Shown here piece by piece: positions 853 through 61,432 of a stretch of DNA of 64,000 nt. Position 1 is the first letter of the stretch. Each line of letters begins with the position of its first letter. A model generated the notes under the pieces. That model was given only the letters and a program-made list of their open reading frames with translations, made no database searches and was not told the DNA's origin. A program made the translations under genes and the position numbers. The DNA is from Escherichia coli (GTDB taxonomy: Bacteria; Pseudomonadota; Gammaproteobacteria; Enterobacterales; Enterobacteriaceae): NCBI RefSeq assembly GCF_050320075.1, contig NZ_CP190018.1, one strand, 5' to 3'.

Positions 853-4243
<3,391 letters not shown>

Positions 4244-4251
<8 letters not shown>

Positions 4252-5377
4252 TCCGATCCTGTCCTGGCGTCGCGTGCGGGCGCTGTGCGTCAAAGAGACA
4301 CGGCAGATCGTTCGCGATCCGAGTAGCTGGCTGATTGCGGTAGTGATCCCTCTGCTGCTGCTGTTTATTTTTGGCTACGGCATTAACCTCGACTCCAGCA
4401 AGCTGCGGGTCGGGATATTGCTGGAACAGCGTAGCGAAGCGGCGCTGGATTTCACCCACACCATGACAGGTTCGCCCTACATCGACGCCACCATCAGCGA
4501 TAACCGTCAGGAACTGATCGCCAAAATGCAGGCGGGGAAAATTCGCGGTCTGGTGGTTATTCCGGTGGATTTCGCCGAACAGATGGAGCGCGCCAACGCC
4601 ACCGCACCGATTCAGGTGATCACCGACGGCAGTGAGCCGAATACCGCTAACTTTGTGCAGGGGTATGTCGAAGGGATCTGGCAGATCTGGCAAATGCAGC
4701 GAGCGGAGGACAACGGGCAGACTTTTGAACCGCTTATTGATGTACAAACCCGCTACTGGTTTAACCCGGCGGCGATTAGCCAGCACTTCATTATCCCCGG
4801 TGCGGTGACCATCATCATGACGGTCATCGGCGCGATTCTCACCTCGCTGGTGGTGGCGCGAGAATGGGAACGCGGCACCATGGAGGCTCTGCTCTCTACG
4901 GAGATTACCCGCACGGAACTGCTGCTGTGTAAGCTCATACCCTACTATTTCCTCGGGATGCTGGCGATGTTGCTGTGTATGCTGGTGTCGGTGTTTATTC
5001 TCGGCGTGCCGTATCGCGGGTCGCTGCTGATTCTGTTTTTTATCTCCAGCCTGTTTTTACTCAGTACCCTGGGGATGGGGCTGCTTATTTCCACGATTAC
5101 CCGCAACCAGTTCAATGCCGCTCAGGTCGCCCTGAACGCGGCTTTTCTGCCGTCGATTATGCTTTCCGGCTTTATTTTTCAGATCGACAGTATGCCCGCG
5201 GTGATCCGCGCGGTGACGTACATTATTCCCGCACGTTATTTCGTCAGCACCCTGCAAAGCCTGTTTCTCGCCGGGAATATTCCGGTGGTGCTGGTGGTGA
5301 ACGTACTGTTTTTGATCGCTTCGGCGGTGATGTTTATCGGCCTGACGTGGCTGAAAACCAAACGTCGGCTGGATTAG
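4244..5377 (+). CDS. ybhS: ABC-2 type transporter permease YbhS
   Basis: 377 aa polytopic membrane protein, overlaps ybhF stop; conserved operon order. Confidence 0.9.
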
Positions 5378-5387
5378 GGAGAAGAGC

Positions 5388-6494
5388 ATGTTTCATCGCT
5401 TATGGACGTTAATCCGCAAAGAGTTGCAGTCGCTGCTGCGCGAACCGCAAACCCGTGCGATTCTTATTTTACCCGTGCTGATTCAGGTGATCCTGTTCCC
5501 GTTCGCCGCCACGCTGGAAGTGACTAACGCCACCATCGCCATCTACGATGAAGATAACGGCGAGCATTCGGTGGAGCTGACCCAACGTTTTGCCCGCGCC
5601 AGCGCCTTTACTCATGTGCTGCTGCTGAAAAGCCCACAGGAGATCCGCCCAACCATCGACACACAAAAGGCGTTACTACTGGTGCGTTTCCCGGCTGACT
5701 TCTCGCGCAAACTGGATACCTTCCAGACCGCGCCGTTGCAGTTGATCCTCGACGGGCGTAACTCCAACAGTGCGCAAATTGCCGCCAACTACCTGCAACA
5801 GATCGTCAAAAATTATCAGCAGGAGCTGCTGGAAGGAAAACCGAAACCTAACAACAGCGAGCTGGTGGTACGCAACTGGTATAACCCGAATCTCGACTAC
5901 AAATGGTTTGTGGTGCCGTCGCTGATCGCCATGATCACCACTATCGGCGTAATGATCGTCACTTCACTTTCTGTTGCCCGCGAACGTGAACAAGGTACGC
6001 TCGATCAGCTACTGGTTTCGCCGCTCACCACCTGGCAGATCTTCATCGGCAAGGCCGTACCGGCATTAATTGTCGCCACCTTCCAGGCCACCATTGTGCT
6101 GGCGATTGGTATCTGGGCGTATCAAATCCCCTTCGCCGGATCGCTGGCGCTGTTCTACTTTACGATGGTGATTTACGGTTTATCGCTGGTGGGATTCGGT
6201 CTGTTGATTTCATCACTCTGCTCGACACAACAGCAGGCGTTTATCGGCGTGTTTGTTTTTATGATGCCCGCCATTCTCCTTTCCGGTTACGTTTCTCCGG
6301 TGGAAAACATGCCAGTATGGCTGCAAAACCTGACGTGGATTAACCCTATTCGCCACTTTACGGACATTACCAAGCAGATTTATTTGAAGGATGCGAGTCT
6401 GGATATTGTGTGGAATAGTTTGTGGCCGCTACTGGTGATAACGGCCACGACAGGGTCAGCGGCGTACGCGATGTTTAGACGTAAGGTGATGTAA
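5388..6494 (+). CDS. ybhR: ABC-2 type transporter permease YbhR
   Basis: 368 aa polytopic membrane protein paralogous to YbhS. Confidence 0.9.
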
Positions 6495-6866
6495 CTTCTT
6501 ATCTTTCGCCAGCAAAGACACCACCGCCGGGCCGGCAAGGATTGCCAGCCCTGCAATCGCCAGCAAAAAGTTGTTTTCCAGTACACGGGACAATAGCCAC
6601 AGCACAATCAGCGCTGCGCCAAAATACCAGGTCGTGGTCAGCTCTTCCAGCACGTCTGCCACCTCACGCCAGCGTTGCTCGGGGTGGCGCTGAAACACCA
6701 GCATCATCACTACCGTGACACAATACAGTGCGCATAATCCCACGCCGACGTGAACCAGAGTCTTACTCATCCAGCCCACCACCAGCAGCGCCACTACCAG
6801 TAAATGCAACATAATCTGCCAGCAACTTAGACCCGTTGCGACACGAACACGTTGTTGCCACTTCAT
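6456..6866 (-). CDS. ybhQ: inner membrane protein YbhQ
   Basis: 136 aa, four hydrophobic segments; convergent with ybhR, 3' ends overlap. Confidence 0.85.
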
Positions 6867-6998
6867 GGCTTCTCTCCTGAAGAATTTATCTCTACTTACT
6901 CAGAGTACCGAACTTTACGGAAAATTCCGTAAGACCGCACCTTTTTGTGACGCCGACTACACTATTTCAATGAGATAAGAGGCAAAGACAGGAAAATT

Positions 6999-7760
6999 AT
7001 GCCCGATCAAACACAACAATTTTCGTTCAAGGTGCTCACCATCAATATTCACAAAGGCTTTACCGCGTTTAACCGACGCTTCATTTTGCCGGAACTTCGC
7101 GACGCCGTGCGTACCGTCAGCGCCGATATTGTTTGCCTGCAGGAAGTGATGGGCGCGCACGAAGTTCATCCGCTGCATGTGGAAAACTGGCCCGATACCT
7201 CGCACTACGAGTTTCTCGCCGACACTATGTGGAGCGATTTTGCCTACGGTCGCAATGCCGTATACCCGGAAGGGCATCACGGTAACGCCGTACTGTCGCG
7301 CTATCCCATTGAACATTATGAAAACCGCGATGTTTCGGTCGATGGTGCGGAAAAGCGCGGCGTGCTCTACTGCCGCATTGTGCCGCCGATGACCGGAAAA
7401 GCGATTCATGTAATGTGCGTACATTTGGGCCTGCGTGAGGCGCACCGTCAGGCGCAGCTTGCGATGCTCGCCGAATGGGTGAATGAGCTACCGGACGGCG
7501 AACCGGTATTGGTGGCGGGTGATTTCAATGACTGGCGGCAAAAAGCTAATCATCCGTTAAAAGTGCAGGCCGGACTGGATGAGATTTTTACCCGCGCCCA
7601 CGGACGCCCGGCGCGCACGTTTCCGGTGCAATTTCCTCTACTACGACTGGACAGGATCTACGTCAAAAATGCCAGCGCCAGCGCGCCAACCGCGTTGCCG
7701 CTGCGGACATGGCGACACCTTTCTGATCATGCCCCTTTAAGTGCGGAGATTCATTTATGA
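6999..7760 (+). CDS. ybhP: endonuclease/exonuclease/phosphatase-family protein YbhP
   Basis: 253 aa; EEP-fold motifs ([24 protein letters not shown]). Confidence 0.9.
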
Positions 7761-8998
7761 AATGTAGCTGGCGCGAAGGCAATAAGATCCAGTTGCTGGA
7801 AAACGGCGAGCAATATTATCCCGCGGTGTTTAAGGCGATTGGCGAGGCACAAGAACGCATCATTCTTGAAACGTTTATCTGGTTTGAGGATGACGTCGGC
7901 AAACAACTGCATGCGGCACTACTGGCAGCAGCGCAACGCGGGGTAAAAGCGGAAGTCTTACTTGATGGCTACGGTTCGCCGGATCTCAGCGATGAGTTTG
8001 TCAATGAACTGACGGCCGCTGGCGTGGTGTTCCGCTACTACGATCCCCGCCCTCGCCTTTTTGGTATGCGCACCAATGTGTTTCGCCGGATGCATCGCAA
8101 AATTGTGGTGATCGACGCGCATATCGCCTTTATTGGCGGGCTGAATTACTCCGCCGAGCATATGTCCAGCTACGGTCCAGAGGCTAAACAGGATTACGCG
8201 GTGCGCCTTGAAGGGCCGATTGTCGAAGATATTCTGCAATTTGAACTGGAAAACCTGCCAGGACAGAGCGCGGCACGACGCTGGTGGCGACGTCATCACA
8301 AAGCGGAAGAGAACCGCCAGCCGGGAGAAGCGCAGGTATTGCTGGTCTGGCGCGATAACGAAGAACATCGCGATGATATTGAACGTCACTATCTGAAAAT
8401 GCTCACTCAGGCACGGCGGGAAGTGATTATCGCCAACGCCTACTTCTTCCCCGGCTATCGATTTTTACACGCCTTGCGTAAAGCGGCACGGCGCGGGGTG
8501 CGGATCAAACTGATCATTCAGGGCGAACCGGATATGCCGATTGTCAGAGTCGGCGCGCGCTTGCTGTATAACTATCTGGTTAAAGGCGGCGTTCAGGTTT
8601 TTGAGTATCGCCGCCGCCCGCTCCACGGCAAAGTGGCGTTGATGGACGATCACTGGGCGACGGTAGGGTCCAGTAATCTCGATCCGCTCAGTTTGTCACT
8701 GAATCTCGAAGCAAATGTCATCATCCACGATCGTCATTTTAACCAGACGCTGCGCGATAATCTGAACGGCATTATCGCCGCAGACTGCCAGCAGGTGGAT
8801 GAAACCATGCTGCCGAAACGCACCTGGTGGAATCTGACCAAAAGCGTGCTGGCCTTCCACTTTTTACGCCACTTCCCGGCGCTGGTCGGCTGGCTTCCGG
8901 CACACACACCACGTCTGGCGCAGGTTGACCCGCCCGCTCAGCCGACAATGGAAACGCAGGATCGGGTAGAAACTGAAAACACGGGGGTAAAACCCTGA
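7757..8998 (+). CDS. clsB: cardiolipin synthase B (phospholipase D family)
   Basis: 413 aa with two HKD motifs ([18 protein letters not shown] and [18 protein letters not shown]); start overlaps ybhP stop. Confidence 0.92.
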
Positions 8999-24510: not shown

Positions 24511-25389
24511 ATGCTGTTTAAATATTGTCCTATTAATGAGTATTCAATTAAATCTCTAGTGGAAAACAAACTATATCTTAATCATCTCAACATGATGAAT
24601 GACAGTGCTGAAGGTTTTTGTAAGATAATAAGTGGTTTCCCAGATTATAATGAAAAAACTGAGAGATATGATTTGATAATAAAAACATGGTGTGGAGAGT
24701 CTGGCTGGCTACCTTCTGAATATGAATATAACGAATATATTGATTCAATGAGAGAACTGGAACCAAATGTCCCGCAATTGCTGGACTCTGCAAGGATATC
24801 ATGCTTTACGAATACGGCGTTAAACCCTACAATGTGGGCTCATTATGCTAACAACAGAACAGGTATATGTATAGAATTCGATCAAGACAAAATAAGAGAA
24901 CTAGAGGATATCTATATCTTTGACGTCAAATATAAAGATCGCCCTCCGACTATTGATACTGCAGTACTAACATTAATAGCTGATCAGGTGAACTATAATC
25001 ATGATGCAATTTATGATGATTATCAAGAAAAGTTCAAACATCTTTATGAACAAGCATTTGACGAGGGAAGAAATTTGCTTTTGGAAATTTACAATGGAAT
25101 ATTGGCAACTAAATCTCAAGAATGGTCTTATGAACAAGAAAAACGGCTAATATATATTTTATCCTTCTCACAAGAAGACAAATTGGCAAAAAAATATAAA
25201 ACTGGCATAAACATATCACTCCCTGAAGGATGCATTAAAAGTGTTATCCTAGGTGAGAAGACAAGTGAGCATGATAAAAAACTTATAGTTTCAGCTATAA
25301 AAAAACATTCTAAACACATTAAGTTGAAGAGAGCTACAATAACACAAGGCGAATATTTATTATCTATTCGTGATGAAGTTTTTAGCTGA
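24511..25389 (+). CDS. hypothetical protein, DUF2971-like (cargo of the b-region slot)
   Basis: 292-aa ORF in roughly 30% GC DNA; N-terminus MLFKYCPINEYSIKSLVENKLYL...NDSAEGF and central NPTMWAHYANNRTGICIEFD resemble DUF2971 signatures as I remember them. Confidence 0.6.
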   Translation: MLFKYCPINEYSIKSLVENKLYLNHLNMMNDSAEGFCKIISGFPDYNEKTERYDLIIKTWCGESGWLPSEYEYNEYIDSMRELEPNVPQLLDSARISCFTNTALNPTMWAHYANNRTGICIEFDQDKIRELEDIYIFDVKYKDRPPTIDTAVLTLIADQVNYNHDAIYDDYQEKFKHLYEQAFDEGRNLLLEIYNGILATKSQEWSYEQEKRLIYILSFSQEDKLAKKYKTGINISLPEGCIKSVILGEKTSEHDKKLIVSAIKKHSKHIKLKRATITQGEYLLSIRDEVFS

Positions 25390-25678
25390 TGGTATTATAA
25401 TCGAACAGATATTTTCTCCTAAGCGTTGCATTTATCCCACGGTAACATATTCATACTCAAATATCCTGCGACATGGAAGATTTGAGTATGGTTGTTCTTC
25501 ATGAGCGAAAAGCAGATGTTCGCGCTAAGGTATAATCAATTGGTTGTTAAATAGTTTAAACACAAGCAATGACTAATAAAACAATGCCACAAACCTTATT
25601 ATTTCTAAACTAGCATTTAGCTTTCAGACAATTTATTGATTGTTAATACATATTTTTAATATTTAATTATCATTTATT

Positions 25679-25689
25679 CCCCCCCCCCC
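25679..25689. repeat. homopolymeric C11 tract (possible slipped-strand or phase-variable site)
   Basis: tt-ccccccccccc-tcatg, in the intergenic region about 245 bp upstream of ORF 25935. Confidence 0.8.
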
Positions 25690-25934
25690 TCATGCTTATC
25701 AAATACTTCACAACAACGGAATTTTAATCCACATTTGTTATCTGTCTCTATCAGATTCATCCATACCCCCCTCCATTATTATTTAATTTCCAGATAAAAA
25801 TCTTCATCCTGTTATACATATAAAAAAGTGCAATATTTAAATAATGATAACAAATTATTGATTTTGCTCACATAAATTTTATTGACAAGATGATAAGCTG
25901 ATATCTACACATTGTATTTTCTCAAGAGGAATTT

Positions 25935-26348
25935 ATGGCTGACATTGTCACTGGTTTGACCGCACTCAAAACCGCCTTTGATTTAGCAAAAGATATAAAA
26001 AATGCCACTGGCGCATACAATGATGCAGAAATGAGGCTTAAGTTTAGTGAGCTTTATAGCGCGCTATCTGAAGCCAAAATAGAACTGGCTGATACACAGC
26101 TAGAAATGTATGAACTAAAGCTGAAGATCGAAGAGTTGCAAGCTAAGCTTGATGCATCGGACGAGCTTGAATATAGGGAAAACGTATACTGGAGGGCCTC
26201 ACCTATCAATGGCAAACCAAACGGTCCTTTTTGCCCAAGATGTTATGAAAGTTCAGAGAAGAAGCTATCTTCAATGAGTCAAGTAACGGGGCATGCAACT
26301 ATTGCTGGAAAATACAAATGTAATACTTGTAACGCCTACGTTAGATAA
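25935..26348 (+). CDS. hypothetical coiled-coil protein with C-terminal four-cysteine zinc-ribbon-like motif
   Basis: 137 aa; N-terminal heptad-rich helix (LSEAKIELADTQLEMYELKLKIEELQAKLDA), C-terminal CPRC...(23 aa)...CNTC; AT-rich; preceded by aagaggaa RBS-like sequence. Confidence 0.55.
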   Translation: MADIVTGLTALKTAFDLAKDIKNATGAYNDAEMRLKFSELYSALSEAKIELADTQLEMYELKLKIEELQAKLDASDELEYRENVYWRASPINGKPNGPFCPRCYESSEKKLSSMSQVTGHATIAGKYKCNTCNAYVR

Positions 26349-52143: not shown

Positions 52144-52637
52144 TGCTGACCCCACAAACAGATTTCACGCTCAATCTCACGACGAGTCATGAGACCTTTC
52201 CATTGCTTACCGCCAGCATATGTCCAGCGACGTAACTGATCACATGCGCCTTTGATATCGCCCTGGTTTATTTTGCGAAGAAGCGTCGATGTTCTGAAAT
52301 TGCCAGCACCCACGTTGTAAACGAATGAGTAAAGAGCGCCGCGCGTTGTTTCCGGTATATCGACTTTGATGTACGGGTTAATTTGTCTGGCGACAGTGGC
52401 AAGGTCTTTATTCAAGAGTGCTTTGCATTCTGCTTTGGTATACGTTTTACCGAGCATGATGTCTTTTCCTGTATGCCCGTGACATACAGTCCATACACCA
52501 ACAATATCTTTGTATGGTATGTAGCTGACACCCTCCAGACCATCGTTACCACCTGGACCAGTGATTAACACTGATGCTATAGCAATTGCTCCGCCACCAA
52601 TAGCAGCAGCAACGGCTTTTCGTAATGATGGAGGCAT
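52140..52637 (-). CDS. R: SAR endolysin (lysozyme R, phage-21/DLP12 RrrD type)
   Basis: 165 aa; N-terminal signal-anchor-release segment [28 protein letters not shown]4-lysozyme-like catalytic region. Confidence 0.93.
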
Positions 52638-52852
52638 TATTCACCTCTCGCAGCCTTGCGCTTATCTTCTTTAATCTTGAAATAAAGGTTTGTCAGGTAC
52701 GTCAGCAGGCCAAATACCAAGCTACCCAGCACACCTATTGCTGCCCACTGTGAGGGCGTGACTTTATCGAGCAGCTGTAAAAACCAGTAGCCAGCACTGC
52801 CTGCGGAGGTGCCGTAGGCAATGCCCGTTGTTAACTTATCCATGGATTTCAT
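52637..52852 (-). CDS. S: pinholin S (phage-21/DLP12 EssD type) with dual-start motif
   Basis: 71 aa, [71 protein letters not shown]; Met1 and Met4 give antiholin/holin starts. Confidence 0.92.
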
Positions 52853-53045
52853 AGCCTCACCTCCGCAAATAACGGATGGTGTACACGGTTCGGAACGAAG
52901 AGGAAAGGTATAGAAGTTACATTAGCGTAAGGCTTGAACATCTATTCAAAAAGAAAAACGCCAGCGATTATTCTGGCGTAGCTGAAAGCATCATACAATT
53001 ATCAAATACGAAAATTACAAAATCATTAAAACGCATCACGTTACA

Positions 53046-53627
53046 TCATGTCTTTTCTAAAAAAAATCTTGATGAATATTGATGGGGAGGAACACCAAAA
53101 TATCTTCTGAAAACACTTACAAAATATGACGTGTTTTCATAACCGCATATCTCAGCAACTTTTCCAACAGAATATAAATTGTAGCTTAATAACCTTTCCG
53201 CCATCACCATTCGCTCTTCAAGAATTAACTTACTAAATGATAAGCCTTCGTGCTTTAATTTTCTTTTTAACAGACTTTCACTCAGATACAGTCTTGAAGA
53301 TATATCACAAAGTCTCCATGCTGCAGATATATCCGTGTGAATAATAGCCTTAACTTTACTTCCTAAACTATTAAGACATCCAAATAAAAAACTTTGCACT
53401 ATTTTCTCTGAAGATAAGATAGCAAGACATGCAAGTGATATTTGATTTCTAACAAAATCCACAGTTCTGCCATCACAATTCAAGCATGCAATCAAGTTCT
53501 TTAACAATGAAAAATCTTCACATTCCACCATCAAGTATGCCGGATAAAACCTTCTTACAGAAAAAGGTGAGAGTGTGTTGCTTTTAAAGAAATCATTAAC
53601 TGTTTTCTCTTCAACATCTACGATCAT
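53046..53627 (-). CDS. short AraC/XylS-family transcriptional regulator (cargo between Q and S)
   Basis: 193 aa; C-terminal AraC-type HTH (VGKVAEICGYENTSYFVSVFRRYFGVPPHQY); very AT-rich gene and 500-bp AT-rich upstream region. Confidence 0.75.
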   Translation of the reverse strand: MIVDVEEKTVNDFFKSNTLSPFSVRRFYPAYLMVECEDFSLLKNLIACLNCDGRTVDFVRNQISLACLAILSSEKIVQSFLFGCLNSLGSKVKAIIHTDISAAWRLCDISSRLYLSESLLKRKLKHEGLSFSKLILEERMVMAERLLSYNLYSVGKVAEICGYENTSYFVSVFRRYFGVPPHQYSSRFFLEKT

Positions 53628-54121
53628 TGCATGATCTATATTTGATGAAAAAAATCTTTTAAATTTTAATCAATGAGAACAGCACTTCCTTTTTTAAATA
53701 AAATATCTTCTTTACCAATTCGGACATCAAACGAGTTCAACACCAAAATGATAGAACATATGTATGGCATATTATCCACCTGATATCATTGGGGTTACAC
53801 CAAGTAAGTATAGGTGGAAAATCAATATTCGCCAGTTCAACAATAAGGAAAATCTCATTGCATCACAAGTATAAAATTATGTATTTAACTCACAAAGACA
53901 AATTATTAAACCAATCTGTTATATTATATATAGCTGCGTGGAATCATAATATTATATATTTTGACTGGCATGTTTACCAACTTTAAGTTGCATCTCAATG
54001 GTTTCTTCAGCGTAAACAGAGTTTTTATACAAACTGACACTCTGGGTATCATAGTGTAGTTTTTACGATTGTAAATATCCTGCATGCAGGAACTCATCCT
54101 TTTGGATGATATCGCATACAA

Positions 54122-55081
54122 TTAATTTACCATCAGTCTTAGAGCCAGTTCGTCCGGATAGGGATCGAAGTAATTCTGTGTAAGCAAGTAATCATTAGGA
54201 TACTCACCCAGATAATGCTTCAGCAGAGTCAACGGCGCAAGAAGAGGTAATGTGCCAGAACGATAGTTAAGTATAACCTCGCTCAACTCTTTACGCTGGC
54301 GTGTACTTAAGTAGTTACTAAAATACCCCTGTATATGCATCATCACATTCGTGTGATTTTTACGTGATGCAGGTTTTCTGAGAATCGCCATCAGCTTATC
54401 ACGATACACCTCAAAGTATGATTCAAGGTCCGCCCACTCGTGTATTGCAGCCACAAATGGTCCCATATCTTTATAGCCTGCCTGACTATGCGCCAACAAC
54501 TGAAGCTTATAACGACTATGAAAAGCTAATAACTCTCTTCTTGATAATTTCTCCTTGTAAAGGTGATTGAGCTCATGCAAAGCAAAAACTCTTTCAACAA
54601 AATTCTCACGAAGCACTGGATCATGTAATCGCCCATCCTCTTCAACCGGTAGCCAGGAAAACTTTTCCATCAAAGTGCTCGTAAATAGTCCCACTCCATC
54701 TTTACGACCTCGATTACCATTTTCATCATAGACACGCACGCGCTCCATGCCACAGCTGGGAGATTTAGCACAAACCACAAACCCCGATACATCCTTTAAT
54801 TTGTCCATATAAGAACGACTAAACTCTGTCATTCTCTCTGTCACATCCTCATTCTGGTCGTGGCTGAAACACATCCGTATATTTCCTTGCGTCGAGCGCA
54901 CAAGACGTAGAGCAGGACGCGGAACTGGCAGCCCTATAGCCATTTCCGGACATACTGGTCTGAATGTTACCCATTCCACTAATTTGTCCATTAAAAAGTC
55001 AGCTCTTTTGTGACCACCATCAAAACGAACAGCAGAACCGGCCAGACAACCGCTGATTCCAATCACAGGTTTTTTTATCAT
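54122..55081 (-). CDS. DUF523 (TudS-like) / DUF1722 (YbgA-like) fusion protein
   Basis: 319 aa; N-terminus IGISGCLAGSAVRFDGGHK plus conserved Cys (CPEM, CAKSPSCGMERVRVY) resembles DUF523; C-terminal half resembles DUF1722; assignment from memory of family signatures. Confidence 0.6.
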   Translation of the reverse strand: MIKKPVIGISGCLAGSAVRFDGGHKRADFLMDKLVEWVTFRPVCPEMAIGLPVPRPALRLVRSTQGNIRMCFSHDQNEDVTERMTEFSRSYMDKLKDVSGFVVCAKSPSCGMERVRVYDENGNRGRKDGVGLFTSTLMEKFSWLPVEEDGRLHDPVLRENFVERVFALHELNHLYKEKLSRRELLAFHSRYKLQLLAHSQAGYKDMGPFVAAIHEWADLESYFEVYRDKLMAILRKPASRKNHTNVMMHIQGYFSNYLSTRQRKELSEVILNYRSGTLPLLAPLTLLKHYLGEYPNDYLLTQNYFDPYPDELALRLMVN

Positions 55082-55273
55082 ATCCTCCCCCTTGACTAAT
55101 TCATTAACACATAAACTGTGTAGTGCACGGAATAAATTGCCTTTCTGGCGTCATCACTGACAATTTTTCTGTTATGGACTATTCCTAATATAGTATGAAA
55201 GTTCTTTAAGTGATCGGTCGTAATCATCTATCTTTCATACTTACTCTCAACTATCAAAAGTACAGGATTTATT

Positions 55274-55798
55274 ATGAAGTTATGGCCTGTGTTGACTGGC
55301 ATTGCACTCTCTTTCACTCTTATAGCATGTAAGGCCCCGACACCACCTAAAGGTGTGCAGCCGATTACAAATTTTGACGCCAACCGCTACCTCGGAAAGT
55401 GGTATGAAATAGCTCGCCTCGAGAACCGGTTCGAACGTGGTCTGGAACAGGTCAGCGCTACTTATGGAAAACGGAACGACGGAGGGATTCGTGTACTTAA
55501 CCGTGGATACGATCCAACGAAAAATAAATGGAGCGAGAGCGAAGGTAAAGCATACTTTACTGGAGATACTAAAACTGCAGCGTTGAAGGTTTCGTTTTTT
55601 GGCCCCTTCTATGGTGGCTATAATGTAATCAAACTGGATGATGAGTATAAGTATGCTCTTGTCAGTGGTCCGAACAGAGAATACCTATGGATTCTGGCAA
55701 GGACCCCAACTATTCCAGATAAAGTAAAAGCAGACTATGTGCGAACCGCTCAAAAGTTGGGATTCAATGTCAATGAATTATTATGGGTTAAACAATAA
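55274..55798 (+). CDS. outer-membrane lipocalin, Blc-like lipoprotein
   Basis: 174 aa; lipobox LIAC, then NFDANRYLGKWYEIARLENRFERGLEQVSATY...KAYFTGDTKTAALKVSFFGPFYGGYNVI very similar to E. coli Blc; on the strand opposite to late genes. Confidence 0.85.
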   Translation: MKLWPVLTGIALSFTLIACKAPTPPKGVQPITNFDANRYLGKWYEIARLENRFERGLEQVSATYGKRNDGGIRVLNRGYDPTKNKWSESEGKAYFTGDTKTAALKVSFFGPFYGGYNVIKLDDEYKYALVSGPNREYLWILARTPTIPDKVKADYVRTAQKLGFNVNELLWVKQ

Positions 55799-55835
55799 AA
55801 TCCCTACCCGAAATAATACTTATTAGAATAAATAT

Positions 55836-55860
55836 CCTCCGGCATAGCCGGAGGTTTTTC
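55836..55860 (+). terminator. rho-independent terminator after the blc-like gene
   Basis: cctccggcatagccggagg followed by tttttc. Confidence 0.7.
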
Positions 55861-55869
55861 AAATGCGCC

Positions 55870-56570
55870 TATAAGGCTCTCTTACCAGCCGCGCCCTAAC
55901 AGGCGCACACGATCTGACATTTGCATCCAACTTCGTTACTTACGGCCCGTAAACGGGCTGCCCGGATAGGGAATCGATAACTGCTCTCCCATTTTATCCT
56001 CTTCAAGCTGGTGCTTTATGTAGTCCTGTATCTTCGCCGTGTTCTTACCCACCGTATCGACATAGTACCCTCGGCACCAGAACTCCCTGTTTCTGTATTT
56101 GAATTTCAAATCCCCAAACTGCTCGTAAAGCATCAGACTGCTTTTCCCTTTCAGATATCCCATAAAGCCGGATACGCTCATTTTGGGTGGGATTTCCACA
56201 AGCATATGGATATGATCTGCGCAGCACTCTGCTTCCAGAATCCGTACGCTTTTCCACTCACACAGCTTTCTCAAAATACTGCCTATCGCCCTACGCTTCT
56301 CTCCGTAAAACGCCAGTCTTCGGTATTTCGGCGCAAAAACTATGTGATATTTACAGTTCCAGCGGGTGTGCACTAAGCTCTTTTCGTCCCCCATTGGGAC
56401 CCCCTTTTGATTTCTTGTTTGACACTTGCAGTTGCCAGACCGCAAGGTGTTTTAACAAATCAAAAGGGGTTTTAATAACTGGCTCAAAGCTGAAAGCTTT
56501 CCGGAACCCCCAGCCTAGCTGGGGGTTTTCTGTGCACAAAAAAACCAGCCTTTGGGGAGGCTGGCTAAAT
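55870..56570 (-). mobile_element. IS200/IS605-family (IS200-like) insertion sequence; boundaries approximate
   Basis: HuH Y1 transposase gene flanked by subterminal hairpins (gcccgtaaacgggc at 55937-55950; cccccagcctagctggggg at 56508-56527; ccagcctttggggaggctgg at 56546-56565). Confidence 0.75.
55936..56394 (-). CDS. tnpA: IS200-family transposase TnpA (Y1 HuH)
   Basis: 152-aa product from MGDEKSLVHTRWNCKYHIVFAPKYRR with HxH motif (DHIHMLVEIPP) and catalytic Tyr region (RGYYVDTVG). Confidence 0.9.
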   Translation of the reverse strand: MGDEKSLVHTRWNCKYHIVFAPKYRRLAFYGEKRRAIGSILRKLCEWKSVRILEAECCADHIHMLVEIPPKMSVSGFMGYLKGKSSLMLYEQFGDLKFKYRNREFWCRGYYVDTVGKNTAKIQDYIKHQLEEDKMGEQLSIPYPGSPFTGRK

Positions 56571-56664
56571 CAGGAAACAAGCTGTTATATGATAATAACT
56601 ACGTTGCGATTCCAACATTTAAAATGTTAGACTAATGAGAATCAGACAGCAACTTTTCCTTTAA

Positions 56665-57057
56665 TTATTTCGAACAATCAGCATCCATCTCCAATCGGAG
56701 ATCCAACACCATCAGCATACCCTCCACTACGCCCTCAGCTTTCTGGAGCATCCTGCCAACCCAACAATCAGATCGCCCATGCTTACGTGCAAGCGCCATA
56801 AAAGTCATGCCGCCGACATAATAGTCCACCAATAAATCATGCAAATCGCTGTTGTTCTTTTTCAGACGGGCCATGCACCCGCAAATGATCATCGCGTCAT
56901 CGTCACAACATTGTGGGCGAGATTTTACTTTTGAAGGAATTAATCCCTTAAAACCGGCGGCAATGGACGACCAGGTCACATCTTCATGATTATTAGCCGC
57001 CCACGCTCCCCAACGCTCAAGAACCATCTGAATATCACGCATCAACTTACTCCACAA
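56665..57057 (-). CDS. Q: late gene antiterminator Q (QuuD-like)
   Basis: About 125-130 aa, [62 protein letters not shown] matches DLP12 QuuD; true start probably the internal Met at 57042. Confidence 0.88.
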
Positions 57058-59236: not shown

Positions 59237-59905
59237 CGTTACACCTTATATAAATACCCCTCAGTAATATCCAATAAGGTATGTGCACAATCAATATAAT
59301 TTTATCCGTATCGGCACATAGCGATTTGAAGGCTACTGGTAATAGTATATTTTAGATTATATCGTCCAGTTTACAGCACCCGTATTTTATGAAATGGACT
59401 CGCATATTACCCAAAAAATGCCAGCACTTCCGTCATCGTAGAATGCTGGCAGTATTTCTAACTAGTGACTTTATTGGAACAGATTCTGACGGAAATATGG
59501 TAACACTCGACTCCACTTATCATCCAGCCACGGCTGGAATTTTACATGTGCCGTTTATCTGGCGAGGATTGCTCGCGCTCTGTTGAGTATCTGGGGATAT
59601 TCATGCTCGATAGAAGTAAAGCGGCCGGCTTCGCGGTGCTCCGCAACCTGAAGTAGTGGAGTAACGTTCTGGCAGGCAGTTAACATCACATCACCTGCTC
59701 GCCATAACCAAGCACGTGCACAAAGTTTGTTATCAGTGAATTGTTTTGTGATTGGGTATTGTTGAACTGCTAGAACGAGAACGCCAGCATCCATTGGCAG
59801 TCCCTATAGTAAAACCATAGCTCAGGACGCTTCGTTCAGGATAGATAATTTTATTGTACTTACCTAACTTTCTTACTATAGCACGGTTGAAAAAGTGATT
59901 ATTAC

Positions 59906-61432
59906 TCAAAAATAAACCTCACCATCAACCATATATTTGAGAGTACTTATCGCCTGCTGGGCGGATATTATTTTCATTAAAGGATAGTGTTTAAAAACAA
60001 TGCCATTCATAAAATAGATATCACAGGTTTTATTATCTGTATTGATTATGATTTTTTCGAATGTTTTATAGGCAAGTGTACGACATAGCTCTCGCCCATT
60101 TTTACTGGTTAAGTCAATAGCATGAAAATCACCAAGTGAACTCACCGCTTTACTCTTCAAAGTTTTTAATGATACAGAAGCCCTTCGTAATTCCTTATCT
60201 AATACTCTGATTTTTTCTGCTATAGCGGTAACTTCAGGCGCAACAGATAATGCAGCAATTAAATTATTAATTTTCATCTGGAGCTCAATAATTTTCAACT
60301 CTAAAGTTTCATTAGCATCTTTCTTGTTTTCAACTGGTTGGATTTTACTACAATTAAAAAGCAACTCATTAATGATATTATAATCAACCAAATCTCTCTT
60401 TATTGATGGCCTGTCACATCGATGCAGTCTTCTCATCGGACAAACATAATAGCCATGCAAACTTCCAGATACCGCATGAACAATCATGGTATTACCACAA
60501 GCCTCGCACTTCATAACTGTTCGAAGTAGATTTATCAACATAGGATTTTTGCTACTATTGCTAATACCAAAAGGTGCCAACCGAATTTCCTGCACAGCGT
60601 AAAACAAATCATCTGATATGACTCTGGGATAATAGCCAGCGATTTCACTTATTCCTTTACCTCTTGCACGATATGAAGGTACGCATATACCTATCAGAGC
60701 TTTATTCGCTAATAATTTTTCAATTACAGAAGGTCCCCATGCACTTTCTTTTCCTGAGAAATTCTTTACAGCATGATCATTTAAATACTTGGCTATTGCA
60801 TTCAATGAGCGCCTTTCCATCCTGAGTTTAAAAATTAGCTCAATAGTTTTCACCCTGTCGGGGTCTGGAACAAAAGCCGTTCTTTTGTCATCCAATGAGA
60901 GCCATCTCGGACAAGACGCCGTCATAATCGTGCCTGACTCCAGTGCATCCTGCCGTTTTTTCTTCCATGATAATTTAACCCGACTTGACTTTATCTCGCT
61001 TTCTTCATTTGCCCTTTGTGCTATAAGTATGGCTTTTATTAATGAATATGGCTCATTCAATGAGTCAATATTATAGACTGTATTATCGCAAAGAGTTATA
61101 ACATCAATACCGTGATTCAAAATCAATTTCAGACGCTCAATCGCTTCACCGACTTTTTCTCTTGAAAGTCTGTCCAGACTTTCAACTAACAATGTAGTCC
61201 CTGGCAATATATAACCATGTTCTATAGCATCTAAAAATTCCGAAAAAGCTCCTGATTGTGCATGCTTTCCATTGAATGCGCTTAACCCCAAATCTTCATA
61301 CGTTACGGTATCAAGGTAATAATCACTATTTACCTTTAGCCATTCAGTAATAAGCCTTCTCTGGCGGTTTAATGAATCACCAGACATCTGACCTGGTGAT
61401 GAAAATCGCATATATGCTATGGCTTTTTTCAT
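59906..61432 (-). CDS. ybcK: large serine recombinase (YbcK-like)
   Basis: 508 aa; N-terminal resolvase/invertase catalytic domain (MKKAIAYMRFSSPGQ...SLNRQ), central recombinase domain and Cys-rich zinc-ribbon region (CEACGN...CPMRRLHRC). Confidence 0.88.
   Translation of the reverse strand: MKKAIAYMRFSSPGQMSGDSLNRQRRLITEWLKVNSDYYLDTVTYEDLGLSAFNGKHAQSGAFSEFLDAIEHGYILPGTTLLVESLDRLSREKVGEAIERLKLILNHGIDVITLCDNTVYNIDSLNEPYSLIKAILIAQRANEESEIKSSRVKLSWKKKRQDALESGTIMTASCPRWLSLDDKRTAFVPDPDRVKTIELIFKLRMERRSLNAIAKYLNDHAVKNFSGKESAWGPSVIEKLLANKALIGICVPSYRARGKGISEIAGYYPRVISDDLFYAVQEIRLAPFGISNSSKNPMLINLLRTVMKCEACGNTMIVHAVSGSLHGYYVCPMRRLHRCDRPSIKRDLVDYNIINELLFNCSKIQPVENKKDANETLELKIIELQMKINNLIAALSVAPEVTAIAEKIRVLDKELRRASVSLKTLKSKAVSSLGDFHAIDLTSKNGRELCRTLAYKTFEKIIINTDNKTCDIYFMNGIVFKHYPLMKIISAQQAISTLKYMVDGEVYF

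Follow-up and report, generated by a model that had tools for sequence, protein, structure and literature searches.

A rudS-lipocalin cassette between Q and the lysis genes of a lambda-like prophage in Escherichia coli

Background

Lambdoid phages carry accessory genes, or morons, in the slot between the antiterminator gene Q and the holin gene S; stx in Stx phages and nmpC in DLP12 are examples. This report describes such a slot, positions 52853–56664 of a 64,000 nt stretch of Escherichia coli DNA (contig NZ_CP190018.1), which is termed the window here. As with stx and nmpC, the accessory genes are situated between Q, the late promoter pR' and the terminator tR' on one side and the holin gene on the other, and have a GC content below that of their neighbours, but the cargo genes are different. 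They are rudS, which encodes a predicted tRNA 4-thiouridine (s4U) desulfidase, blc2, which encodes an outer-membrane lipocalin, and an AraC-like regulator gene. The slot probably represents the standard cassette of 1H12-type coliphages in a copy with extra damage, where RudS and Blc2 are intact and the regulator gene is dead.

Fusions of a TudS domain with DUF1722 remove sulphur from tRNA 4-thiouridine (Jamontas et al. 2024, PMC11417400). One of these proteins, RudS_vir, is gp66 of phage 1H12, and its activity was assayed by over-expression in E. coli. Overproduced RudS lessens the growth delay that is induced in E. coli by ultraviolet A (UVA) light. In the same paper E. coli is taken to be without RudS. 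MerR neighbours and light-responsive operons are mentioned there but no lipocalin, and the phage cassette and its lipocalin neighbour are not discussed (PMC11417400). Among infant-gut lambda phages, over half were reported to carry blc as a moron (Mathieu et al. 2020, PMC6969025), and the Lambda_ev and 1H12 genomes that match the present cassette at 89% are phages of that study. In O157, the prophage AraC-like proteins PsrA, PsrB and PatE control GAD and LEE genes (PMC10877973).

The cassette is known, catalogued lambdoid cargo, with blc noted in 2020 and RudS explained in 2024. This analysis adds the frequency of the cassette among E. coli genomes, the differential decay of its regulator gene, an IS200 insertion at tR' and the synteny of lipocalin and rudS genes. 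The new point is the syntenic link of lipocalin and rudS in MerR loci.

The Q-S slot of the prophage

The slot is bounded exactly by the stop of Q (56665) and the start of the holin gene (52852), as seen from the open reading frame (ORF) list and RefSeq. The boundaries given in an earlier note, made from the letters of this DNA without database searches, are precise. The slot region is a 100% match to the chromosome of E. coli Ec-U3 (NZ_CM192149.1). RefSeq annotation shows that the Ec-U3 prophage is complete and lambda-like, with replication genes, Q, lysis, terminase and head/tail genes, J and Lom; the integration site is beside bioA/ybhB. The late operon is on the minus strand of the window, where Q, a terminator and then essD, rrrD and rzpD are found on one strand. 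The layout along this strand is Q, the putative pR', tR', IS200, blc2 (antisense), rudS, the AraC-like gene, a terminator and S-R-Rz.

Three ORFs that the earlier note listed are present, with lengths of 193 aa (53046–53627, minus strand), 319 aa (54122–55081, minus strand) and 174 aa (55274–55798, plus strand). The assignment of rudS and the AraC-like gene to the late-operon strand and of blc to the opposite strand is also correct. The inventory of the slot thus stands for the three genes, but a 711-bp IS200 element was overlooked. The slot is AT-rich, as had been proposed, with a GC content of 0.40 (0.38 without IS200) compared with 0.53 for the structural genes. The interpretation as an accessory (moron) island is supported, and the prophage that has it in its Q-S slot is complete and lambda-like. 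Of the usual properties of a moron, the GC content differs from that of the neighbours and a terminator follows the AraC-like gene; the promoters are consensus matches at chance level. Homology of the Q-S flanks to those of K-12 DLP12 (quuD-nmpC-essD) was considered and rejected, as it is confined to the genes themselves.

RudS

The gene rudS (54122–55081, minus strand) is intact and encodes a 319 aa protein with a TudS domain fused to DUF1722. Pfam places PF04463 (2-thiouracil desulfurase) at residues 7–149 (E = 1.6e-39) and PF08349 (DUF1722) at residues 192–309 (E = 4.6e-40), which agrees with the DUF523/DUF1722 domains assigned previously. The protein is 93% identical to RudS_vir (gp66 of phage 1H12) in a gap-free alignment. 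Both proteins are 319 aa in length with the same domain fusion, and gp66, like rudS here, is flanked in the cassette by the blc and AraC-like genes. The two proteins differ by 22 substitutions.

The earlier note had proposed that a lack of the conserved DUF523 cysteines would speak against its interpretation, but C12, C44 and C110 (numbering as in RudS_vir, which also has all three) are present in the window protein. In an alignment with TudS 6Z92, C12 and C44 correspond to its C10 and C43. Glu46, Ser107, Ser109 and Arg55, when counted from the cysteines, occupy the positions of RudS_KT catalytic residues. On these sequence properties the 319 aa protein is RudS, a predicted tRNA s4U desulfidase. 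The desulfidase homologue, previously considered unexplained, therefore has an explanation, as its 1H12 ortholog has been tested as a tRNA s4U desulfidase (PMC11417400). Full-length RudS in the phage database is confined to the records of 12 E. coli phages.

Blc2 lipocalin and the blc2-rudS intergenic region

The gene blc2 (55274–55798, plus strand) is antisense to late transcription and encodes an outer-membrane lipocalin lipoprotein of 174 aa. It matches the NCBIfam Blc model PRK10477 (NF007786) over its full length with 316 bits against a cut-off of 267, so that the previous identification as a Blc-like lipocalin holds. The match to PDB Blc chains has an E value of 3.5e-69. The lipobox L-I-A-C has Lys at position +2, and the signal, MKLWPVLTGIALSFTLIAC-K, can be read directly from the sequence. 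Like E. coli Blc (PDB 1QWD/3MBT), Blc2 has the Lipocalin_2 fold and a lipobox and matches the NCBIfam model above its cut-off over the full length, but the amino acid identity to K-12 Blc is only 59.8% and the blc2 gene is not beside ampC. Identity is 75–82% to lipocalins of other Enterobacterales that are next to MerR-rudS loci. Blc2 fails an orthology test with the chromosomal, ampC-linked blc of E. coli and belongs to a paralogous lineage; it is not simply a second copy of Blc, as the earlier note had it. Nor is a phage Blc unusual, since it is a reported moron of infant-gut lambda phages (PMC6969025). The moron carried by the Lambda_ev and 1H12 phages is blc2 itself, and the window Blc2 has 97% aa identity to the allele of phage Lambda_2E9.

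The divergent intergenic region (55082–55273) is expected, from its sequence and a four-copy alignment, to contain the putative blc2 and rudS promoters. Two features of its sequence are the box AATATAGTATGA and, for rudS, a strong Shine-Dalgarno sequence, GGGGGAGG. The region is not more conserved than coding DNA; a count on the alignment gives about 90% identity with the 2E9 allele. The box AATATAGTATGA (about 55186–55197, plus strand), which is upstream of blc2, weakly resembles AATATACTACGA, a sequence conserved in the merR-lipocalin spacers of five genera. A second sequence, GCACTACAC (about 55127–55135, minus strand), is upstream of rudS and matches TGCACTACAC of the merR-lipocalin spacers, although in the opposite orientation. 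These sequence likenesses could be relics of a donor promoter/operator, or could be due to chance. There is also a perfect 10-nt inverted repeat, AGTATGAAAG / CTTTCATACT, at 55192–55201 and 55232–55241. It was rejected as a functional site and treated as chance: only 8 of the 10 positions hold in the 2E9 allele, and the adjacent changes are non-compensatory.

The AraC-like gene and its alleles

The AppY/YdeO-like AraC-family gene (53046–53770, minus strand) has 243 codons and is a pseudogene in the window, as shown by alignments and by RefSeq, which flags it as frameshifted in this genome. In comparison with intact phage copies there are three lesions: a TAC to TAA change at codon 35, a T8 to T7 frameshift 12 bases later (the T-run is near 53652) and an A5 to A4 deletion near the 3' end. 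The 193-aa ORF (53046–53627) is a remnant from codon 49 onward, with an internal ATG at 53627 that has no Shine-Dalgarno sequence. The earlier note described this ORF as a short AraC/XylS regulator. The AraC-type HTH_18 domain is real, with E = 1.9e-14 on the intact allele, and is also encoded by the window remnant, but the short regulator is the tail of a broken 243-codon gene. Pseudogenisation of the three genes had been named as an outcome that would refute the earlier interpretation; it is found for one of three, and rudS and blc2 are intact. As this copy is a pseudogene, the rewiring of host regulons that was suggested is unlikely for it. An AT-rich spacer (53771–54121, minus strand; GC 0.32) is upstream of the AraC-like gene and has promoter-like sites, namely two 10-of-12 sigma-70 matches at 54075–54048 and 53980–53951.

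The intact gene is 732 nt and encodes 243 aa in phages IdasGreatGrand and Lambda_2E9. This allele resembles the AppY/YdeO/GadX group, which includes the prophage proteins PsrA, PsrB and PatE, in size, architecture, AT-rich composition and carriage by prophages. It differs in that identity to AppY is 32% over 233 aa. The alignments to YdeO and AppY are end to end, but the YdeO score of 127 bits is below the equivalog cut-off of 348 (GadX, 86 compared with 500), and the protein fails the equivalog test for YdeO, GadX and AppY. It is in PHROG 1450, where a function is not assigned. No source names the protein, and every named hit in a large protein collection is from E. coli. That collection has intact 243-aa clusters of 1131 and 449 members and a cluster of 623 members that represents a truncated ORF of 195 aa. 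In phage records associated with Shiga toxin-producing E. coli (STEC), nothing is nearer than about 39% over the full length. The best full-length match is 38.8% (phiSTEC1575-Stx2k), and there is a partial match of 41% over the C-terminal 100 aa in an O157-derived fragment.

The window allele is present in 49 genomes, as determined with a 91-nt probe. With a probe for the T8 state, the gene was detected in 910 genomes, with a match of at least 99% in 241, of 95–99% in 346 (mostly T7 types) and more divergent sequences in 323. Other copies differ in their lesions. AR434 has the T7 lesion only, Ec-042-T20 has T7 and an IS2 insertion, H5 has T7 and an A-run deletion, and 2014EL-1346-6 keeps T8 but has a T6 to T5 frameshift elsewhere. 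The possibility that all chromosomal copies are dead was rejected, since six further T8 copies taken by stratified sampling are all intact. Intact 243-aa alleles are present in all 12 phage isolates. Of the close copies, approximately half have an inactivated AraC-like gene. T7 is found on three single-nucleotide polymorphism (SNP) backgrounds that share no other derived change, and therefore represents recurrent slippage or an old change; the tract could reflect recurrent slippage, phase variation or an old event.

Distribution and selection

The rudS-blc2 pair (at least 80% coverage) is found in 1046 of 5426 complete E. coli genomes (19%) and in 12 phage isolates. When IS200 is left out, the cassette is present in 790 of the 5426 genomes. 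It is probably the standard accessory block of one clade of lambda-like temperate coliphages, the 1H12 or Jouyvirus type. A comparison of window-type and 2E9-type alleles shows dN/dS values of 0.11 for rudS, 0.07 for blc2 and 0.25 for the intact araC gene. Both rudS and blc2 are under purifying selection. Among 12 chromosomal copies inspected, rudS is intact in all and the annotation of 11 includes lipocalin WP_000780581.1; the exception is 2014EL-1346-6, where IS1 truncates blc. Retention of both genes therefore extends to remnant prophages with a dead regulator.

The presence of an intact prophage rudS in 1046 of 5426 genomes is to be set against a RudS literature that treats E. coli as lacking the enzyme. 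With this prevalence, tRNA s4U levels and near-UV physiology may differ between strains, and results from K-12 may not generalise. The frequent inactivation of the regulator gene also calls for caution: raw ORFs of prophage "regulators" should first be compared with intact alleles.

Chromosomal relatives of the rudS-lipocalin pair

The RudS proteins encoded on the chromosomes of Citrobacter, Klebsiella, Serratia and others share 70–76% identity with phage RudS. The operon in Citrobacter and Klebsiella ends in rudS, with the gene order SDR, amine oxidase, DUF1365, CFA synthase, DUF2878, an unannotated gene, DUF3833 and rudS. The lipocalins with 75–82% identity to Blc2 are from Cedecea, Scandinavium, Serratia, Klebsiella and a metagenomic contig. 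In five of eight contexts examined, the lipocalin gene is divergent from and next to a MerR/MlrA-like gene, and rudS is the last gene of the operon of the latter. Klebsiella, Cedecea and Scandinavium have the long form of this locus. A compact locus in S. rubidaea consists of lipocalin, merR and rudS genes, and another, in the contig with the closest hit (L032, 82%), consists of lipocalin, merR, a transthyretin-like gene and rudS.

The lipocalin and rudS genes are in the same order and orientation in the phage and in the MerR loci, with 66–74% DNA identity. The enterobacterial operon, MerR(MlrA-like)-SnoaL-SDR-amine oxidase-DUF1365-CFA synthase-DUF2878-DUF3833-RudS, therefore resembles the phage cassette in the order and orientation of the two genes and in an aa identity of 73–82%. 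The phage differs in being without the MerR regulator and the lipid-modifying genes, and in a GC content of 43% compared with 57%. In a blastn search, the middle of the Klebsiella operon has no match in any complete E. coli genome. Pseudomonas and Vibrio cholerae have blue-light regulons that are related to the enterobacterial MerR locus; the V. cholerae genes that respond to blue light include one for a MerR-like regulator and the CFA-synthase gene VC1122 (PMC5241685). By these sequence comparisons, the phage pair may be a captured, regulator-less fragment of a presumed light/oxidative-stress MerR locus that E. coli does not have. The MerR-locus link provides a concrete, testable reason for the joint travel of lipocalin and rudS.

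Several candidates in these loci were not upheld. The unannotated gene of 174/175 aa in the Citrobacter and Klebsiella rudS operons was rejected as a Blc homologue, as there is no similarity; its Cedecea counterpart is chalcone-isomerase-like. No PDB sequence match was found that would give DUF3833 a lipocalin-like solved structure. The sole hit for a merR remnant in the phage cassette is a spurious helix-turn-helix match inside the AraC-like gene. In the metagenomic contig L032 (JGI 3300011748), the closest lipocalin homologue and its merR-rudS neighbours are beside genes for an integrase core, a SymE toxin and an AAA_15/OLD-like ATPase (2628–7992); this locus may itself be mobile.

Proposed function and alternative explanations

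In the proposed sequence of events, a phage would have captured the two end genes of a MerR locus and left MerR behind. In the lysogen, blc2 would be made from its own putative promoter against late transcription, as is the opposite-strand conversion gene bor in lambda, and its product would be exported to the outer membrane. RudS would lower tRNA s4U and blunt the near-UV growth delay of the lysogen. On induction, Q-modified RNA polymerase would cross tR', IS200 and the terminator at 52958–52979 into S-R-Rz, and rudS expression would be raised en route. The AraC-like remnant would contribute nothing in this strain. The expression of blc2 in lysogens, the effect of RudS and Q read-through are drawn from the lambda paradigm and the RudS paper.

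A number of points weigh against this interpretation. Promoter predictions across the slot are at chance level, with 13 found and 10.8 expected, and expression of the cassette genes in lysogens is proposed by analogy with lambda. RudS_vir is well expressed and yet shows weaker tRNA desulfidation than the other enzymes tested (PMC11417400). The lipocalin-MerR-rudS linkage was not found in three of the eight contexts (Pantoea, Lelliottia and Kosakonia). The light response suggested for the enterobacterial MerR locus is by homology with Vibrio and Pseudomonas. The phage cassette has no merR remnant and no alignable intergenic DNA that ties it to one donor. The phage genes have 43–44% GC compared with 57% in the closest chromosomal locus, and any capture would therefore be old. 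Joint capture of blc2 and rudS from one MerR locus is not proven. The further proposal that lipocalin and RudS are one functional pair, a regulator-less piece of a MerR-controlled photo-oxidative-stress locus brought to E. coli by lambda-like phages, is tentative and on balance unlikely. If it were true, the tRNA s4U of approximately one E. coli strain in five would be reduced or inducible, and the sunlight/UVA response of these strains would be unlike that of K-12. The position of rudS on the Q-dependent late transcript would then tie s4U erasure to UV-triggered induction.

Two alternatives concern the regulator gene. An active short AraC/XylS regulator could rewire host acid-resistance or virulence regulons, with the other genes as unexplained passengers. 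The intact alleles in all 12 phage isolates and many genomes, which are under purifying selection with dN/dS of 0.25, are in line with this, as are the resemblance of the family to AppY (32%) and YdeO, the control of GAD/LEE genes by PsrA, PsrB and PatE (PMC10877973), and the survival of the DNA-binding half in the 193-aa ORF. However, the window copy has the stop at codon 35, the frameshift, the 3' deletion and the RefSeq pseudogene flag, and the ATG of the remnant has no Shine-Dalgarno sequence. The family is below the YdeO cut-off (127 compared with 348 bits) and its subfamily has no studied member. In addition, rudS and blc2 are intact beside a dead regulator and therefore do not depend on it. 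We consider this explanation very unlikely. The T8 tract could also be a reversible ON/OFF switch (phase variation) instead of a site of decay. The three SNP backgrounds of T7, with no other shared derived change, would fit such a switch, and both states are common (241 exact T8 alleles and up to 346 close alleles at 95–99%). Second hits in T7 alleles, i.e., the nonsense codon, IS2 and homopolymer deletions, point instead to lasting inactivity, and an 8-nt tract is short for efficient slippage; phase variation has little probability.

Prophage induction and UV exposure are naturally coupled. RudS could be mainly a helper of the lytic cycle, made from the Q-dependent transcript after UV/SOS to strip UVA-sensitive s4U, or it could alter tRNA against a host defence. 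The location of rudS on the late strand, after tR' and before the holin gene, its strong ribosome-binding site and the lessened UVA growth delay on RudS overproduction in E. coli (PMC11417400) are consistent with this role. Degraded prophages without a lytic cycle nevertheless keep rudS intact, e.g., the 2014EL-1346-6 and H5 remnants. RudS works before cross-linking, and it cannot restore tRNA that is already cross-linked; the literature has no known link between RudS and defence. A role mainly in the lytic cycle is quite unlikely. Lastly, the island could be neutral or decaying junk of no use to host or phage. One of three genes is dead, an IS element has landed in the slot, and other copies have IS1 or IS2 insertions. 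The dN/dS of about 0.1 for rudS and blc2, identical protein sequences across unrelated strains, and retention of the cassette in viable phages and in 19% of complete genomes make this hardly credible.

IS200 insertion

The IS200 element (55827–56537, minus strand) is 711 bp, with boundaries determined to within 2 nt by alignment with empty sites, and there is no target duplication. Its tnpA (55936–56394, minus strand) encodes a 152-aa transposase that scores 143 bits against a cut-off of 55 for the NCBIfam model transpos_IS200 (NF033573). The left-end RNA element (56404–56527, minus strand) matches Rfam STnc490 (RF01405) with 146 bits compared with a cut-off of 56. The Y1 transposase, left-end RNA, length of about 0.7 kb and duplication-free insertion are those of IS200. 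The exact junction is found in only 4 genomes, and the element is an addition specific to this strain lineage.

The plus strand terminator 3' of blc (55836–55854) is the right-end hairpin of IS200 and is missing from IS-free copies. The "own terminator" attributed to blc in the earlier note is thus part of the IS200 right end. In copies without the element, blc and a short transcript from the putative pR' converge on the tR' hairpin. On its other side, IS200 directly abuts the T7 run of the native phage terminator at 56538–56566. In CFT073, the left end of an IS200 between aas and galR (locus L025, about 1540–1570) likewise adjoins a terminator T-run, of a different hairpin and T8. The window and CFT073 sites suggest an insertion preference of IS200 for the 3' edge of terminators.

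Late control region and slot boundaries

The Q gene (56665–57042, minus strand) encodes an antiterminator of 125 aa that is a distant relative of Q21, as shown by RefSeq, PHROG 79 and a match to PDB 6P18 Q21 (E = 1.9e-8). The interval between the Q stop and the terminator (56567–56664, minus strand) is expected to contain the putative late promoter pR' and the Q-loading site, and is conserved at 96–100% in IS-free copies. A consensus scan gives two candidate pR' sites, TTGCTG-17-TAACAT (56652–56624) and TGGAGA-18-AATAAT (56693–56664). The intrinsic terminator at 56538–56566 (minus strand) was identified by a terminator scan and consists of a hairpin, AGCCAGCC..GGCTGGTT, followed by a T7 run. 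The RNA fold has -19.4 kcal/mol with a z score of -3.2. It is native to the phage, as it is present in IS-free copies, and is the site hit by the IS200 insertion. With its location about 100 nt downstream of Q, it is read as a tR' analogue, with pR' being putative. An Rfam hit to Betaproteobacteria_toxic_sRNA (27 bits, cut-off 50) was rejected as merely the terminator hairpin. No LexA box was found near rudS or blc; the sole CTGT-N8-ACAG of the window is at 37855.

At the other end of the slot, a terminator scan shows a hairpin and T-run (52958–52979, minus strand) that is terminator-like and is between the AraC-like and holin genes. The holin gene (EssD/S21-like; 52637–52852, minus strand), as given by the ORF list and RefSeq, is the first gene of the lysis cassette and forms the lower slot boundary.

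Other cargo and decay in the prophage

The early region has emrE, an SMR efflux pump gene (about 61688–62020), and a ybcK-type serine recombinase gene (about 59906–61432), as in DLP12. The emrE gene was noted in two lambda genomes by Mathieu et al. (PMC6969025). A gene with a P22AR C-terminal domain (antirepressor-like; about 59471–59794) is a RefSeq pseudogene with an internal stop, and is the second decayed gene in an otherwise complete prophage. At the prophage end by ybhB (about 24511–26348), a DUF2971 gene and a hypothetical gene of 137 aa are on the opposite strand to the tail genes; these may represent additional cargo or genes for defence. The segment at 50670–51371 (plus strand), which separates Rz from the terminase gene, contains two opposite-strand genes of the YlcI/YnfO family and of DUF1398 (YbcV-like). 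Other copies of this phage type have iss/bor at this position instead.

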